A stretch of 64,000 nucleotides of DNA, taken from a virus (Duplodnaviria; Caudoviricetes). Under the pieces are notes generated by a model, which searched no databases, was not told the origin of the DNA, and was given only the letters and a program-made list of their open reading frames with translations. Position numbers and translations under genes: made by a program. The stretch is taken from positions 64,001 to 128,000 of IMG/VR virus record IMGVR_UViG_3300020399_000132. One strand, given 5' to 3'. Of this stretch, positions 3,637 through 43,849 are shown one piece after another (position 1 is the first letter of the stretch; every line of letters starts with the position of its first letter).

Positions 3637-5168
3637 GATAAGTGCTTTTTAATTATATTTGCCAACTCCAGACGATTGCCTACGTTTTTCTTCCCAGATA
3701 TAATATTCATAAAATCACTAAAGGATCTATTATCTCTCGGCGCACGTCCTTTCTTTTTCTCTAAAGGCTCTTTTTCTCTCAAATAGGAATCTATGGTATT
3801 TTTTAAAGTATTATTTTTATCTGTTGCTTTATTATACTTTTTTATTGCTGCTCCCTTTGTCCACTTATCATTCATTAAGGCATTCGCAAATACATCACCT
3901 AGGATATCACCATATCCCGATTCACCTTTAACCAATTTTGCCGGTGTATATGGTTCTACTTTTAATCTTGGTACAAAATTTCCATAACCACCTTGTTTCC
4001 AATCTAAAGCCCAGTCATAATCAATATCAACTTTACCAGCAACACTAAGATAATCTTGACCGGTTTTAAATGCATATGCATTTAAATTCGCTGGATTATA
4101 ATAAAAAATAACATCATGAGATTCTTTCTTTGCATATACGTTCATACCATTTGCAACCCAAATATGCATAAAAGTATTAGGCTCTGTCACACACATTTTT
4201 TTATCTAGGTAAATGGCATCATTAAATTTAATTCCACCATCCATTCCACCTTGACATGCAGTGCATACTTTTTTCCACATATCTGTAATTTGTGTAACAG
4301 AGGCGCCATGTTCGTACAACCTTATTGATGCTTCGTTCATTGCCGCTGAAAATTTTTCTTTCTTTATAACTCCACCTCCGGAAGATTTATCAACAACTCC
4401 TAATCCAACATTTCCAGGAACTTCCGTAGCACCAGTTGTTTTTTTCCAAAAGTCATCAAAAACTTTCTTTCCATCTCTGAATCCATCTTTTTTACCAAAT
4501 GCTGCGCCACTACCCTTTTTCGCTTCTGGGTCGTCCGATTCTAAATCTTTACCACCTTTTTTTAATTCGATAACACCTGGTGTGCCGGCGACTCCACCTT
4601 CAAAATAAACATCACCTTTACCATCTTTACCTTTACGCCCACTAGGATGATTTAAAATTAAAAAAATCTCACCACCACCCATATTTCTTTTATCTATTTG
4701 AGGTTCCCAGGAAACAAACCAATTATAAAATGCTGGATTATTAATTAAAGGATTGGAATCTTTAATATATTTTTTGTTACCAATATTAGTCCCCTCACCT
4801 TTTAGAGCATCAGTTACTATGGCGTCTGCATCAACTAATTTTCCGCCTATTAATTTGTTTATAAAATCTAACTTCTCTTCTACTTTTACATTTATTTTAA
4901 TAATTTTTGACATCAGAGCTTCTTTAGCCACTTCTACTTTACCTGTTGTCATTTTCCTATTATCAAATAATTCACCGATTCTCATTTCCATATTGGGAAC
5001 AAATACTGCTTCGTATGCTCTATCAATAGTCTCCTGAGGAGCTTGCTTTAAAATTCTCAAAAGAGGGGCCAATTCTGGAGCATTAATATTTCTTATATCT
5101 TTTTCCAGAAGAAGCGCTATTATATGTTCGGCAGATTCAGTCATAAAATTTTTATATGTTTTTTTCAT
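3633..5168 (-). CDS. Hypothetical protein, probably packaged in the head
   Basis: MKKTYKNFMTE N-terminus; 511-aa ORF. Confidence 0.7.
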   Translation of the reverse strand: MKKTYKNFMTESAEHIIALLLEKDIRNINAPELAPLLRILKQAPQETIDRAYEAVFVPNMEMRIGELFDNRKMTTGKVEVAKEALMSKIIKINVKVEEKLDFINKLIGGKLVDADAIVTDALKGEGTNIGNKKYIKDSNPLINNPAFYNWFVSWEPQIDKRNMGGGEIFLILNHPSGRKGKDGKGDVYFEGGVAGTPGVIELKKGGKDLESDDPEAKKGSGAAFGKKDGFRDGKKVFDDFWKKTTGATEVPGNVGLGVVDKSSGGGVIKKEKFSAAMNEASIRLYEHGASVTQITDMWKKVCTACQGGMDGGIKFNDAIYLDKKMCVTEPNTFMHIWVANGMNVYAKKESHDVIFYYNPANLNAYAFKTGQDYLSVAGKVDIDYDWALDWKQGGYGNFVPRLKVEPYTPAKLVKGESGYGDILGDVFANALMNDKWTKGAAIKKYNKATDKNNTLKNTIDSYLREKEPLEKKKGRAPRDNRSFSDFMNIISGKKNVGNRLELANIIKKHLS

Positions 5169-19479: not shown

Positions 19480-21984
19480 TTAAGCAACCATTTCCGCAAA
19501 TCTTTGAAGCATTATCCTTTTTTCTAATTTTCCTTTTTGAAATTTTTTGAATGCCTTGGTCAAAGAAGCGGTTGAATTAACTTTATTAGTATCAATATTT
19601 ATTTCATCCTCCATCATAACGGAGGCATATTGTTTGATTACATAAAGTTCATCATATCCACGATTTTCTACAATCATGTAACCGTTTCGATTGTAATCCG
19701 TTTTTACATCTTGCCATTCGCTCCATCCAACCATGCGAGTTGCATCATCAGAGGAAGTTGTAAGAAAAAATCCTAAAACATTTGAACCGGTCTTATATTT
19801 AAAATAATTTATAAAATTTTCTGTTTGGCGAAATCCATGACAGGCGGTCCAATCAAAAACTTTTTTTGTTTCTTTATCAACCAACCTGATGTGAGAATTT
19901 CGAGTATCGATTCGTTCTGGAAAAAGTTCATCTCCGCTGTCTTCTCTTGTCACGAAAGTTTTATGAGATGAATTAGATTCTCCGTCTGTAAGAATAATTG
20001 TGTTAACAATATCAAGATTATTTTCTCTTTGAAATCTTTTAACATTTTCTGAACTTATCATGATTGCATCATTCAAAGGAGTTCCGCAAAGACGATGTAG
20101 CGGAAACTTTATATGTCGACCTATTGAATTCCATTCCCAAGATGATTGACATTTATTTTCATAACCCCAAGTATCATAGATTATAGAAGGGATTGTATCT
20201 TTCGGAAGTTTGGTATTTCGACCAGTCCATGCATTTCTATTTCTTATTTTATCTCTTCTTTCTTCTAACCAATACGCACCAACAAAATCTCTATCGCATC
20301 GAAGTATAGATAAAAGAAGATTTTCACGTTGTGACTTAAATTCCTTACTGGTCATTTTATTAGAAAATATTTCAATTAATTGAGTAGATTTATCTCCCAT
20401 TGCCATATCGCCTAATCGTTCTTTATAAGGAGTCCCAAATTTTTCTTTTTCTTTTCCTTCTTCATCAAAACTATAATCAACAAAAGCATATGCCTCATGA
20501 GCGATGTTACATTTTCGACAAAAATCTATTAATTGAAATAATTGATTCAAAGTTGGAAGCATTTTATCACTCATAGATCCTGACCAATCCATTAAAAAAT
20601 AAAGTCCGTGACTCTTACCTTCAGGAACAATCGTAATTTTCTTAAAAATATTATCACAATATTTGTACTTATGAATGTCTGAAAGAGATATGGTACCTGT
20701 GTTTGCGGTCATCGATCTTTTATATTCAGCTGCTTTCTTTTTCATTTCAAATTCTTTAACAAGATAATTAACAACTGGTTTATTTTCTTTGTCGATATAT
20801 TTCAAATATTCGCGTGCATATCCAAATGCTAATGAATATTCTCTTTCCCACTCACTCTCTCCCTTATTTGCCCCTATCAAATAATCCCTGCGTTCATCTA
20901 TTGCTTCCTGAGTTCTTTTTAAAAGTTCTTTATAATTAATAATTAAATTTTCACTTTTCAAATCAATTGTTGGTGAATTATAATATTGCAAATCTAGCGC
21001 ATCTTCATGAACTAGTTCTTCCTCATGTTCACGAAAATTCTGATCAGTTAAGGATTTCGGTTCTTGTTTCCATCTCCATGGATCATCTTCATACCACTTA
21101 TCATATCCTCCTGTTTTTCCGGAACCCAACTGTCCATCTTCTTCCTCTTTTCCTCCATCTTCTTCAGACGCAGATGATTCTTGATTTCCATCACCTTCTT
21201 CTTCTTGATCTCCATCAGTTCCTTCATTATCGCATTTATCTACCGGCTTATCACAATCATCTTTTTCTGTTTCCTCTGCTGCCGATGATTGTTCTTCTGT
21301 TTCATTAAAATCATAATCATAATCATTTTCCTCATCACTATCTTCATCTTCATCTTCATCTTCTTGATAATATTGATCCATAAAAGAATCATCCTGACAA
21401 GTCTGTTGTTCTTGTTCGTTTTCTTCAGCATAATTCCAAAGTTCCTTAGTCAGTTGTTCAACATCTTCCCAAGTCTCAAGTGCGGCCATCTTATCAACAA
21501 ATGGTTTCTCTGCTTCGGTGAATTGAACATTCTCCAAAGGACCACCTTTAAAATGAATATTGAGTTTATCAATTAGTGAGGCAGAATTGATATCTATATT
21601 ATATTGCTTGAGGCCGAAAAAATCTCTATCATGTACTAAGACTTTATATCCCTTGCTCATCGCTTTTCCAGCACCTGCGAACTTTCTTTTGATTAATTTT
21701 TCGATCCTGGCATCTTCTACAACGTTCAAAAAGCCCTTATAATTCGGTCCTTTTTCTTCAATAACCTTGTGCCAGCCATTAGCTGGAGTATTTAAAGCGT
21801 GTCCGACTTCGTGACAAACAAACAAGTCATAAACCTCACCTTCCATCTCTTTGAGAATCGGTAAAATTAATGTTCTGCCTTTCGGATCGAATCCGGCGGT
21901 TGGAACTTTAGCGTGGCGCACAGTAATATTTTCTGACGCCATGAGTTTTGCTAAAATTCCTTTTTGTTCTATTAATTCAGCCAT
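19480..21984 (-). CDS. CobT-like metallopeptidase/VWA partner of the AAA ATPase
   Basis: HEVGHAL, NVVEDARIE, acidic linker, MIDAS DWSGSM, GTPL, ILTDGE. Confidence 0.88.
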   Translation of the reverse strand: MAELIEQKGILAKLMASENITVRHAKVPTAGFDPKGRTLILPILKEMEGEVYDLFVCHEVGHALNTPANGWHKVIEEKGPNYKGFLNVVEDARIEKLIKRKFAGAGKAMSKGYKVLVHDRDFFGLKQYNIDINSASLIDKLNIHFKGGPLENVQFTEAEKPFVDKMAALETWEDVEQLTKELWNYAEENEQEQQTCQDDSFMDQYYQEDEDEDEDSDEENDYDYDFNETEEQSSAAEETEKDDCDKPVDKCDNEGTDGDQEEEGDGNQESSASEEDGGKEEEDGQLGSGKTGGYDKWYEDDPWRWKQEPKSLTDQNFREHEEELVHEDALDLQYYNSPTIDLKSENLIINYKELLKRTQEAIDERRDYLIGANKGESEWEREYSLAFGYAREYLKYIDKENKPVVNYLVKEFEMKKKAAEYKRSMTANTGTISLSDIHKYKYCDNIFKKITIVPEGKSHGLYFLMDWSGSMSDKMLPTLNQLFQLIDFCRKCNIAHEAYAFVDYSFDEEGKEKEKFGTPYKERLGDMAMGDKSTQLIEIFSNKMTSKEFKSQRENLLLSILRCDRDFVGAYWLEERRDKIRNRNAWTGRNTKLPKDTIPSIIYDTWGYENKCQSSWEWNSIGRHIKFPLHRLCGTPLNDAIMISSENVKRFQRENNLDIVNTIILTDGESNSSHKTFVTREDSGDELFPERIDTRNSHIRLVDKETKKVFDWTACHGFRQTENFINYFKYKTGSNVLGFFLTTSSDDATRMVGWSEWQDVKTDYNRNGYMIVENRGYDELYVIKQYASVMMEDEINIDTNKVNSTASLTKAFKKFQKGKLEKRIMLQRFAEMVA

Positions 21985-21991
21985 GTTCCTC

Positions 21992-22237
21992 TTATACGAT
22001 GTTAAATCTAGGATCTTCAGTTATATGATCTCCCTCTGCAAGGCATGATTTGACCTGATACTTATCTCTAAAGATTTCCATCTTGTTAAAAGCATCGTCA
22101 AAGCTTTCTGCCGTCAGATATAAAGGTGATACATATTCCAAGGTATCCCAAGTACGCATCCATACCTGATACGTCTGATTTTTAGTCATGTGCCTTCTTC
22201 TTTGGTTGCTTTTATATTTTTGATCGTATATCGCCAT
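21992..22237 (-). CDS. Hypothetical protein
   Basis: ORF directly downstream of an early promoter. Confidence 0.6.
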   Translation of the reverse strand: MAIYDQKYKSNQRRRHMTKNQTYQVWMRTWDTLEYVSPLYLTAESFDDAFNKMEIFRDKYQVKSCLAEGDHITEDPRFNIV

Positions 22238-22291: not shown

Positions 22292-22432
22292 ATTATACCA
22301 TTTATAGCGCAACATGTCAACATATTTGATTTCTTGTAATATCAAGAGGTTACTAGTACCTTATTGAAATTATTGATAATCTTTTATCATCAATGATTGC
22401 GACCGGTTACCTATATCTCATTAAAATCATTG
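22292..22432 (-). promoter_or_regulatory. Sigma70-type early promoter plus two copies of the 42-bp dyad
   Basis: TTGACA (22315-22320)-17-TATAAT (22292-22297); dyads 22334-22375 and 22391-22432. Confidence 0.8.
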
Positions 22433-22500
22433 ATAATCTTTTTTGATAAATAGAAGAATTGGAGAGAATATTTAATGAATTTTTTTGGAAAGGAACAACC

Positions 22501-23334
22501 TTGACTAGCTTAATTATACCTACAGATTTTGACAATGCCGTTACCAGTCTTCGTAAATTTTTTCATTCCCGTGGTTTCCTAGAAGTACACACCCAAAACA
22601 GATTATCCATATTAGCCGCTTGCGAAGATCCCACAACTGTCGCAACATATAATTATAATGACATCATATGGCCTTTGCCTCAAACAGGTCAAATGTGGTT
22701 AGAATACGAGCTATTAAATAATCCAGATTTAAAAGGAGTATTCTGTGTTTCAACATCTTATAGACAAGAACAGAACCCCGTTGAAGGTAGACATGAAGTT
22801 ATATTTCCCATGTTTGAATTTGAAGCACCTGGCGACTTTCAGGACTTGCTTAATATGGAAAGAGATTTAATTAAGCACTTAGGTTTCATAATTCCTGATA
22901 ACAATTCATTTCCTGAAAAAACCTACGGTATGTGGTGCGAGGATTTTGATTGTGATGAATTAGATCATGACCACGAACAAATGATATCTGATTCCCATCC
23001 ATCCGGAGTTGGATTTATAACTCAATTTCCTTATCATACTTCCCCCTTTTGGAATATGAAAAAAGAAGGTGATCTTGCTAACAAATGCGATGTAATTATG
23101 GGGGGCATGGAAACTATTGGTTCCGCTGAAAGGTCTGCTGATCCGAAAGAGATGGAAGACCAGTTTCATACAATTTCCGATGGAGAATATGCTGAATTAT
23201 TATTTAAATTATTCGGTAAAGAACGAGTAGAAAAAGAATTGAAAGAATTCTTAAGTCATAAATTTTTTCCAAGATATGGTGGTGGAATAGGTCTTACCAG
23301 ACTTATAAGTGCCCTGAAGATTAATAATGCGTGA
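22501..23334 (+). CDS. Class IIb aminoacyl-tRNA synthetase catalytic-domain-only protein (AsnRS/AspRS-like or archaeal-type asparagine synthetase-like)
   Basis: Motif 1 LRKFFHSRGFLEV, motif 2 SYRQE...GRH...FPMFEFE, ETIGSAER, motif 3 GGGIGLTRL; no N-terminal OB-fold anticodon domain; likely TTG start at 22501 after AAAGGA. Confidence 0.85.
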   Translation: MTSLIIPTDFDNAVTSLRKFFHSRGFLEVHTQNRLSILAACEDPTTVATYNYNDIIWPLPQTGQMWLEYELLNNPDLKGVFCVSTSYRQEQNPVEGRHEVIFPMFEFEAPGDFQDLLNMERDLIKHLGFIIPDNNSFPEKTYGMWCEDFDCDELDHDHEQMISDSHPSGVGFITQFPYHTSPFWNMKKEGDLANKCDVIMGGMETIGSAERSADPKEMEDQFHTISDGEYAELLFKLFGKERVEKELKEFLSHKFFPRYGGGIGLTRLISALKINNA

Positions 23335-23337
23335 TAC

Positions 23338-23448
23338 TCTGGGGTGGCGAAATAGGGAAACGCGGCACGTTGTTTGCGTGTTATCTTTGGTTTGATCGAT
23401 ATAATCTAGATCAAAGATGTGTTGGTTCGAGTCCAACCCCCAGAGCCA
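23338..23448 (+). tRNA. Non-canonical tRNA with GTT (Asn) anticodon and 39-nt variable arm
   Basis: Acceptor TCTGGGG/CCCCAGA, G73, encoded CCA; D-arm GCG-AAATAGGGAAA-CGC; anticodon arm GCACG-TTGTTTG-CGTGT; T-arm GTTGG-TTCGAGT-CCAAC. Confidence 0.85.
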
Positions 23449-23473
23449 TTAGTAAAGATATATTTATATCATT

Positions 23474-23968
23474 TTAAAACTTAGATATAAATTTCGCTAT
23501 GGGTTGAATAAGTGGAAGTAAAGCAACCGCCATTAGTGCATTCACTCCTGTATGAATTATTGCAATCTGTTTAGTTATTCCTGTGGGCATCCCATCAGAA
23601 ACCATTATTCCAGCCAACCAAATAGTTCCAGTAGTTCCTATATTTGCACCAAGTACAGCTGCGATTGCAGATGGTAAAGGTAAGGCGCCAGATGCAACTA
23701 ATCCTATAATTGCGGTAGTAGAAAGTGAACTAGATTGCCAGAGAAGAGTACATCCAATTGCTCCGAAAAACATATAATAGGGATTTCCTAAAAACCATTC
23801 AAGATGTTCTAAATGACTCATTGATTTCATTCCTCCCGAAAACATCTTAAGACCAATGTAAAAAATTACCAAACCTAAAAGGGTCTGAAATACTGGGTTA
23901 TTAAATTCCATAAAATTTCCTTTTTTATATTTCCACGAATCGTAGAGTTTTCTATCTTTCTTTTTCAT
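23474..23968 (-). CDS. Na+/phosphate cotransporter family protein (single repeat)
   Basis: GLKMFSGGM, WQSSSLST, LGANIGTT motifs; hydrophobic. Confidence 0.85.
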   Translation of the reverse strand: MKKKDRKLYDSWKYKKGNFMEFNNPVFQTLLGLVIFYIGLKMFSGGMKSMSHLEHLEWFLGNPYYMFFGAIGCTLLWQSSSLSTTAIIGLVASGALPLPSAIAAVLGANIGTTGTIWLAGIMVSDGMPTGITKQIAIIHTGVNALMAVALLPLIQPIAKFISKF

Positions 23969-43774: not shown

Positions 43775-43849
43775 TGGCTGCCTAGGCTGGGCTCGAACCA
43801 GCGACATTCTGATTAACAGTCAGATGTTCTACCACTGAACTACTAGGCA
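43775..43849 (-). tRNA. tRNA-Asn(GTT), canonical
   Basis: TGCCTAG/CTAGGCA acceptor, loop CTGTTAA, G73, CCA. Confidence 0.95.

Follow-up and report, generated by a model that had tools for sequence, protein, structure and literature searches.

A synthetase-derived enzyme and an adjacent private tRNA in marine phages: a probable two-gene module with a possible link to pyrimidine synthesis

Paralogs of aminoacyl-tRNA synthetases (aaRS) with non-canonical roles are a known kind of protein. EpmA, which derives from lysyl-tRNA synthetase (LysRS), acts on EF-P, and GluQ-RS, a class I enzyme, acts on Q34 of tRNA-Asp. Archaeal asparagine synthetase A (AS-AR), a truncated paralog of asparaginyl-tRNA synthetase (AsnRS) with a solved structure, is reported not to charge tRNA. 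Here we describe a gene for an AsnRS-like enzyme (the mini-enzyme, 22501-23334, plus strand) that is followed directly by a gene for a tRNA with anticodon GUU (the private tRNA, 23338-23448, plus strand). Both lie in a 64,000-nucleotide stretch of viral DNA (the window), which comprises bases 64001-128000 of a complete T4-like virus of 177,419 bp. Genes of this family are already deposited, under names given by similarity. In our reading the two genes probably form a phage module in which a synthetase-derived enzyme and its private tRNA cooperate, for metabolism rather than for ordinary decoding.

The open frame of the first gene covers 22459..23334 on the plus strand. The longest open reading frame (ORF) begins at TTG 22459, and the ATG at 22476 is out of frame. 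Homologs begin at a pattern MT.LI.P, which corresponds to TTG 22501 of the window, and a Shine-Dalgarno-like AAGGA read in the sequence (22490-22494, plus strand) is found 6 nt before this codon; the product is therefore taken to be 277 amino acids long. A Pfam search returned the class II core of the D/K/N synthetases (PF00152, E=1.7e-18, residues 27-286) and neither an OB-fold nor any other second domain in the mini-enzyme. The N-terminus extends about 15 residues before motif 1. Motifs 1-3 are all present, motif 1 reading HTQ with Gln where Pro is expected, and they are unvarying among 46 homologs. The protein also matches PHROG 29758, a group of unknown function, with E=4e-114. Curated models of AsnRS, aspartyl-tRNA synthetase (AspRS), LysRS, AS-AR and EpmA all stayed below their cut-offs, at 12-38 bits against 264-1026. 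This includes the two asnS models (TIGR00457, 28.2 bits against 342.6; NF003037, 31.9 against 414) and the two models of asparagine synthetase A (NF005055, 27.4 bits against 389; NF005053, 17.8 against 322).

An AlphaFold (AF2) model of the mini-enzyme has a pLDDT of 86.8. Foldseek places it nearest to AsnRS (E=6e-18 to 1x54), and in VIA-align AsnRS scores Z values of 26-26.8 with 22-24% identity over about 260 residues, next in order being archaeal AspRS (Z 26.1), AS-AR (23.3-23.8) and GenX (23.4). The family profile gives the same preference, with E=1.5e-9 for the AsnRS 2xgt versus 9e-4 for the AS-AR 3p8t. Leu81 occupies the position of Lys198 of E. coli AspRS, as in the LYLE of AsnRS. We take this lysine to bind the Asp side chain in AspRS and to be absent from AsnRS, and the pocket of the mini-enzyme therefore looks Asn-type. 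An Asn-type pocket could also hold Asp in a reversed AS-AR mode. Two blocks, RLSILAACEDP and TSPFWNM, are specific to the family and unvarying in it. Gene 1 is an AsnRS-derived class IIb core whose ATP and amino-acid motifs are intact and which has no anticodon-binding domain. A preliminary description of this DNA had called it a core of about 277 amino acids with motifs 1-3 and no N-terminal anticodon-binding domain, and both the Pfam result and the starts of the homologs agree with that.

The second gene begins 3 nt after the stop codon of the first. The Rfam model RF00005 matches at 23338-23445 with 41.5 bits (gathering threshold 29) and the match is followed by CCA, giving a tRNA of 108 nt plus an encoded CCA. 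The family covariance model R1 scores 79.4 bits on it, ARAGORN makes no call of it, and blastn of the tRNA region against isolate phages gave no match. The tRNA has U1-A72, G73, a D stem of 3 bp and a variable region of 39 nt (23382-23420, plus strand) that is predicted to form an extra hairpin, a trait of the lineage to which the window belongs. The anticodon loop reads UUGUUUG, with GUU at 23372-23374 and U at position 37. The minimum free energy fold is a cloverleaf with an A/U-rich extra arm of 12-14 bp (-38.3 kcal/mol, z=-3.0). For comparison, the same phage carries an ordinary tRNA-Asn(GUU) outside the unit, at 43775-43849 on the minus strand (ARAGORN), with the loop CUGUUAA, a D stem of 4 bp and a variable loop of 5 nt. 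This tRNA has a class I body, U33 and A37, whereas the private tRNA has neither the class I body nor A37. The preliminary description was thus right on both counts: the complete 111-nt tRNA(GTT) with CCA, U1-A72 and G73 lies 3 nt past the stop, and the normal tRNA-Asn is encoded separately.

The arrangement recurs in marine viruses. IMG/VR contains at least 596 relatives of the mini-enzyme. A covariance model was built from 47 homologous tRNAs, which show compensatory changes at 18 of 20 stem pairs. A tRNA of the family is found directly 3' of the gene in 75 of 85 loci, with 63-96 bits (72 of 80 from IMG/VR and three isolate cyanophages). Among the ten loci without a match, three are contig ends and seven have no family tRNA in the flank, so that among the roughly 82 viral loci with sufficient flank the pairing holds in 75, in addition to the window itself. 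The loci with a tRNA make up three phage clades of the enzyme tree, and the adjacency persists across these three deep clades, whose proteins are 59-90% identical. The gap between stop codon and tRNA is mostly 5-10 nt. The tight coupling of enzyme and tRNA, which had been claimed from this one locus, therefore recurs beyond chance, and the check proposed with it, a search of homologs with a custom covariance model, finds the tRNA adjacent in the phage clades and under cloverleaf constraint. With the Rfam match, the family model, the fold and the covariation taken together, gene 2 is a true, co-evolving tRNA.

The isolate cyanophages are P-SSM7, P-SSM2 and P-SSM5, in which a 61%-identical 'tRNA ligase' is followed within about 10 nt by a tRNA(GUU) of 85-88 nt. 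In P-SSM2, ARAGORN and Rfam place this tRNA right after the 'tRNA ligase', at 3813-3900 of the locus; the GenBank entry (AY939844.2) has the tRNA-Asn feature PSSM2_199 about 2 kb from there, and its coordinates look like an annotation slip. The cassette occupies different genome positions in P-SSM2 and P-SSM7 and appears to be mobile. One mini-enzyme (P0130) is fused to a homing-endonuclease domain of the GIY-YIG/NUMOD3 type, and a LAGLIDADG endonuclease adjoins another (upstream neighbours in A4).

Position statistics were taken from 61 unique tRNAs. U1-A72 and G73 do not vary, and 44 of 59 encode the CCA. All of the 61 except one have the anticodon GUU, the exception having GUC. G34-U35 and the elbow are kept across the family, the elbow and the T arm having canonical form. 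At position 33, 47 tRNAs have U, 8 have C and 6 have A, so that 14 of 61 depart from U; at position 37 most have U, 8 have G and 2 have A (U37 or G37 in 59 of 61). The GUC form is a real lineage of five contigs, each with the gene and then a GUC tRNA that has U1-A72, G73, CCA and compensatory changes in the T stem; the pocket motifs of the corresponding enzymes are unchanged.

The variable region varies in length between 5 and 39 nt. It is only 5-7 nt in 11 of 61 tRNAs and reaches 38-39 nt only in the window and three further loci (L006, L009 and L013). Because of this range the oversized arm cannot be a general identity element, and it was rejected as one. The preliminary description had proposed recognition by the acceptor stem or the oversized arm: the acceptor end, with U1-A72, G73 and usually CCA, is indeed kept, and the arm is not a family trait. 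For the same lack of a constant long arm, assignment to the type II tRNAs (Ser, Leu, bacterial Tyr) was rejected. An 8-bp acceptor stem of the tRNA-Sec or allo-tRNA type was also considered, since ARAGORN draws one, seen only in the P-SSM2/P-SSM7 type. It was dismissed, since position -1 (T in 27, C in 21, A in 13) does not covary with the unvarying G73.

The ORF is covered by contigs from RNA libraries (Logan metatranscriptomes, four studies), and a close relative contributes one RNA contig that spans the end of the ORF and the tRNA. Support for co-transcription is weak because the data are contigs only; these give presence without ends, strand or charging, and DNA carry-over is possible.

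The enzyme family extends far beyond phages. A search for proteins of near-equal length gave at least 8000 candidates, and every protein scored (the representatives of 90%-identity clusters) matches the family. Clustering at 50% identity leaves 271 representative clusters with scores below 1e-30, and the best 150 of these 271 are nearly all 260-340 amino acids long or shorter fragments. Among the longer forms searched for, only fusions to DHO_dh or to an endonuclease were found. In contigs from one genome per species, 414 loci encode relatives with 55-63% identity. The cellular carriers are Patescibacteria of the candidate phyla radiation (CPR), Rickettsiales (Ca. Bandiella), Dependentiae, Legionellales, Saprospiraceae and Chitinophagales, and the CPR sequences form a clade of their own in the enzyme tree. 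Phage, bacterial and giant-virus members, with or without a tRNA, do not differ in their active-site motifs. The family has a median isoelectric point of 4.8, and the phage proteins are the most acidic of the groups.

Among the contigs from cellular genomes, the special tRNA occurs only on five marine, phage-like contigs within bins of metagenome-assembled genomes (MAGs). Seven short marine MAG-bin contigs group with the phage clades in the enzyme tree, labelled Thaumarchaeota (L104), Pacearchaeota (L109), Bacteroidetes (L117), Poseidoniia (L142), Legionellales (L164), Chloroflexota (L103) and Flavobacteriaceae (L135). Five of the seven carry the phage-type tRNA, and all seven are probably pieces of phage DNA assigned to the wrong bin. 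The huge phages LR756501 and LR756508 were searched for the special tRNA elsewhere in their genomes, and only ordinary Leu, Ser, Pro and Asn tRNAs were seen. The preliminary description had held that homologs without an adjacent unusual tRNA would speak against the proposed pair. Such homologs occur in huge phages, in giant viruses and in about 400 cellular genomes; within the phage clades the tRNA stays beside the gene.

In several cellular genomes, as well as in giant viruses, the mini-enzyme is associated with genes for pyrimidine synthesis. Proteins of about 590 amino acids consist of an N-terminal dihydroorotate dehydrogenase (DHODH) domain (E=1e-40 to 1e-52) and the synthetase core (P0121-P0129; L098:4249-6033). 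These DHO_dh fusions are found on giant-virus contigs from freshwater metagenomes, with TBP, IF4E, RING and TK as neighbours, and no special tRNA was found near them. The operon of Ca. Bandiella (L158:174-4579, OZ245923.1) comprises an amino-acid permease, a 151-aa protein, the mini-enzyme, pyrF, a phosphoribosyltransferase gene and a DHO_dh-like gene. A second operon has pyrD, the mini-enzyme and a pyrE::pyrF fusion with a 4-nt gap (G308), and a third has pyrD, the mini-enzyme and an amidohydrolase (G226); in G175 and G194 the mini-enzyme adjoins pyrD, with pyrE alongside. The loci at which compact operons unite the mini-enzyme with pyrF, pyrE and pyrD include, besides that of Ca. Bandiella, L184:3162-6410 and L183:4945-8875.

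A census of neighbours at 63 true cellular loci found DHO_dh upstream in 2 and orotidine monophosphate decarboxylase downstream in 6, with Dus, a tRNA-dihydrouridine synthase, upstream in 13 and DnaX downstream in 11. In Patescibacteria, Dus is directly 5' of the mini-enzyme (L105:170-1177, L157:791-1813, L112:839-1798 and 10 further CPR loci) and dnaX often follows 3', an arrangement that may be shared synteny or a second link to tRNA.

No pyrB was found in the five carriers examined, and pyrC is absent from the two Rickettsiales carriers. In one Bacteroidota order pyrB is present in 104 of 121 genomes, and all four carriers are among the 17 genomes without it (p=2.8e-4, uncorrected for phylogeny). 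These pyrB-less genomes keep pyrD in 16 of 17 cases, and carB is absent from three of the four carriers. Within the CPR class, pyrF is found in 41 of 151 genomes versus four of six carriers (p=0.047). Operons of this kind in pyrB-less genomes suggest an undescribed entry into the synthesis of uridine monophosphate (UMP).

We also asked if the mini-enzyme stands in for AsnRS. No canonical asnS above cut-off turned up in a set of 5 carriers, and 10 of a set of 50 had one; gatB is present in all five carriers tested. Within the CPR class an AsnRS-like gene occurs in 0 of 6 carriers versus 22 of 151 genomes overall (p=0.38), which is uninformative because AsnRS is rare in that class anyway. The AsnRS-poor carriers argue against a plain asparagine synthetase, since the free Asn that it makes would need AsnRS.

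The reading that we tentatively favour, at a confidence somewhat short of even, is an Asn-activating enzyme that feeds pyrimidine synthesis at the level of DHODH, with the phage tRNA as a dedicated aminoacyl carrier. We prefer it because the motifs are the same everywhere, because pyrD, pyrE and pyrF are linked to the enzyme where pyrB is missing, and because the phage tRNA keeps the features of identity and not those of decoding. The enzyme would form an adenylate of Asn (or Asp), and the conserved reaction would supply dihydroorotate or a precursor of it to DHODH. A ring closure driven by the adenylate is conceivable, and by arithmetic dihydroorotate would equal Asn plus CO2 minus H2O. In phages the private tRNA would serve as the carrier, with the aminoacyl group moving, in either direction, between its 3' end and the adenylate site of the enzyme. 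In this way tRNA-dependent charging with Asp or Asn would be coupled to nucleotide supply during infection. Among the options of the preliminary description, donation of aminoacyl groups to a non-ribosomal reaction is the one that fits best.

The tRNA elements that are kept bear on this carrier role. Asn identity is set by the anticodon and G73, and amidation by GatCAB is set by U1-A72 (PMC9976931). The private tRNA has the GUU, G73 and U1-A72 of a canonical tRNA-Asn. By these published identity rules, the kept elements are those that would be recognised by a host AspRS, non-discriminating (ND-AspRS) or not, or AsnRS, as well as by GatCAB and the acceptor-end site of a class IIb enzyme. A bolder version, which we consider quite improbable, would make the module a shortcut: an Asn adenylate, obtained from free Asn or by reversed transfer from Asn-tRNA, would react with CO2 to dihydroorotate and so bypass CarAB, PyrB and PyrC. 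The private, non-decoding tRNA (GUU or GUC) would be loaded by host AspRS or ND-AspRS, amidated by GatCAB by virtue of U1-A72, and act as the Asn donor, whereby tRNA-dependent Asn synthesis of the host would be turned into nucleotide supply.

Several observations weigh against a pyrimidine role with the tRNA as carrier. The proposed reaction, its amino acid and a contact between enzyme and tRNA are all inferences. In cells and giant viruses the family does without a private tRNA, the mini-enzyme proteins are acidic and contain no added RNA-binding part, and pyr genes are absent from the phage genome. A tRNA that decodes would likewise be expected to show the T arm, G18-G19, an encoded CCA, a near-constant GUU and the U33 seen in 77% of the tRNAs, and the lack of a canonical AsnRS in 40 of 50 cellular carriers would also fit a true mini-AsnRS. 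The correlation with pyrB loss in the Bacteroidota order carries no correction for kinship, and 13 of the pyrB-less genomes in that order have no mini-enzyme. Furthermore, three CPR carriers (G002, G003 and G008) have neither pyrD nor pyrF, and one Dependentiae carrier has no pyrD.

The explanation that survives next best treats the two genes as independent parts of one mobile cassette. The enzyme would then act without tRNA, either in making a pyrimidine precursor or as an asparagine synthetase, and the tRNA would be a divergent tRNA-Asn that is charged by the host for translation, or a processing signal by which RNase P forms the 3' end of the mRNA. That the family functions without a tRNA in cells, huge phages and giant viruses, with motifs that do not depend on the presence of one, is what this explanation would predict. 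It would also account for a cassette that looks mobile, judging from its positions in P-SSM2 and P-SSM7 and from the endonucleases fused or next to it, and for a tRNA that keeps the host identity elements GUU and G73. We nevertheless regard it as doubtful, though worth keeping in view, since the adjacency survives three deep phage clades at 59-90% protein identity. A plain decoding helper needs no type II-like body, no U37 and no switch to GUC, and the phage carries a normal tRNA-Asn as well.

We regard as unlikely a third explanation, the orthogonal decoding pair of the preliminary description. In this case a minimal, anticodon-blind AsnRS would charge the private tRNA(GUU) by way of U1-A72 and G73, and the Asn-tRNA would be used on the ribosome, giving Asn decoding that is independent of the host AsnRS or of ND-AspRS and GatCAB, or resistant to anticodon nucleases. 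In favour of such a pair, all catalytic motifs of an aaRS are kept together with the motif 2 loop, AsnRS structures are the nearest folds, the adjacency is kept, the acceptor-end elements do not vary, CCA is encoded, and the T arm and elbow are canonical. In the 40 of 50 carriers without asnS, and with gatB in five of five, a direct AsnRS would be useful, and the RNA contig of the relative spans ORF end and tRNA. A simple pair of this kind is weakened by the decoding positions, with U37 or G37 in 59 of 61 tRNAs and C33 or A33 in 14 of 61, and by the GUC lineage, in which, the pocket being unchanged, Asp codons would receive the same amino acid. It is weakened as well by the operons and fusions with pyrimidine genes, by the ten of 50 carriers that also have a canonical AsnRS, and by the lack of conservation of the oversized arm. 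The normal tRNA-Asn that the phage already holds and the reported failure of archaeal asparagine synthetase A to charge tRNA also count against it.

Least probable, and to our mind very doubtful, is a viral equivalent of AS-AR that makes free Asn from Asp, NH4+ and ATP beside a tRNA that raises Asn decoding for an AT-rich, Asn-rich phage: the architecture and size (about 290 amino acids without an anticodon domain), the VIA-align Z values of 23.3-23.8 to 3p8t, 3reu and 3rex, a weak match to the NCBIfam asparagine synthetase A and the window GC of 34.6% agree with it, but the model score is 27 bits against a cut-off of 389, the profile E value is 9e-4 (3p8t) versus 1.5e-9 (AsnRS), E. coli AsnA matches at motif 3 only, most cellular carriers have no AsnRS to use free Asn, and the pyrD/E/F operons, the fusions and the special tRNA are left unexplained.

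The unit also stands out in the layout of the window, which has a GC content of 34.6% and in which psbA was not found. The minus strand holds 58 of the 60 non-overlapping ORFs of at least 100 amino acids, and the mini-enzyme gene is one of the two exceptions; the preliminary description had called the unit the only convincing one on the plus strand in 64 kb. A T4-late-promoter-like octamer, GATAAATA, is read upstream of the unit (22445-22452, plus strand). Its presence agrees with the preliminary description. Its assignment as a late promoter is weak, because exact TATAAATA shows no enrichment in the window (7 copies against 12 expected, all 7 on the minus strand). Two copies of the 14-mer ATTGATAATCTTTT lie just 5' of the unit on the plus strand, at 22372-22385 and 22429-22442, 57 nt apart. 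The second copy abuts the GATAAATA box, and the 14-mer may be a regulatory repeat.

The spacer between the tRNA and the convergent minus-strand gene (23449-23473) contains an A/T hairpin with a T run, and within it an exact minus-strand TATAAATA at 23461-23468, 13 nt past the CCA of the tRNA and pointing toward the unit. If this site is a late promoter, the tRNA and the mini-enzyme gene would be transcribed in antisense. A terminator scan made no call in the spacer, because G-C pairs are too few in the stem of the hairpin. Both this type of scan and that for sigma-70 promoters gave results at chance level. A perfect sigma-70 consensus is found at 22292-22320 on the minus strand (TTGACA, 17 nt, TG-TATAAT; 12/12). 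It is directed away from the unit, and the genes that it would drive are 21992-22237 and 19480-21984, both on the minus strand. The convergent neighbour (23477-23968, minus strand) encodes a 164-aa fragment resembling Na+/Pi cotransporters (PF02690, E=1.8e-15), which may be an auxiliary gene for phosphate uptake or a remnant.

The family is abundant, with about 600 IMG/VR loci and 414 species genomes, and it is present in the culturable model cyanophages P-SSM2 and P-SSM7. If enzyme and tRNA exchange an aminoacyl group, this would be a naturally occurring, minimal synthetase core of class II whose private tRNA is recognised without the anticodon, and it would bear on the origin of aaRS-tRNA pairs and on the engineering of orthogonal pairs. 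If the link to pyrimidines is true, Bacteroidota, Rickettsiales, CPR bacteria and giant viruses without aspartate carbamoyltransferase would have an undescribed entry into UMP synthesis, and the phage gene would be a new kind of auxiliary metabolic gene.

The one mention found in the literature is the cyanophage 'tRNA ligase' T4-GC 194, a single table row with a name based on similarity, and the pairing, the oddities of the tRNA and the wider family are not discussed there (PMC3037559). The ESM Atlas gives only automatic 'tRNA ligase' names. A literature search found no functional study of the family, and the pairing, the anatomy of the tRNA, the cellular family and the pyrimidine link are untreated in the papers found. 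The tRNA of the window differs from those of P-SSM2, P-SSM5 and P-SSM7 in that its CCA is encoded and its extra arm is much longer.

Among characterised enzymes, the archaeal and eukaryotic type of AsnRS (1x54, 8h53, 2xgt) has the class IIb fold in common with the mini-enzyme, as well as the motifs QxxQ-LE, (S/F)YRxE...RH...E.E, GS.ER and G.G.G..R. Unlike AsnRS, the mini-enzyme has no N-terminal OB-fold, a much shorter insertion between motifs 2 and 3, and Gln for Pro in motif 1. AS-AR (also AsnRS2; 3p8t, 3reu) is likewise a stand-alone AsnRS-like core of about 290 amino acids without an anticodon domain; it is more distant from the mini-enzyme than AsnRS is, both in sequence and in fold. It has no partner tRNA, and to our knowledge no link to pyrimidine genes, whereas the mini-enzyme is distributed over phages, CPR bacteria, Rickettsiales, Bacteroidota and giant viruses. 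E. coli AsnA matches in hhalign over only 33 columns around motif 3, with a probability of 4%. EpmA/GenX (PoxA) and GluQ-RS (YadB) are like the mini-enzyme in that the anticodon domain was lost, the adenylate chemistry kept and a new acceptor taken; the NCBIfam EpmA models reach 18-23 bits against cut-offs of 264-287. Unlike the phage mini-enzyme, neither is known to have a private tRNA gene. Finally, ND-AspRS with GatCAB in the formation of Asn, and Glu-tRNA in tetrapyrrole synthesis, are cases in which a tRNA serves as carrier for chemistry on the attached amino acid. We know of no case of such tRNA-dependent synthesis that combines a paralog of an aaRS core with a private tRNA of non-decoding type, the combination proposed for the phage unit.

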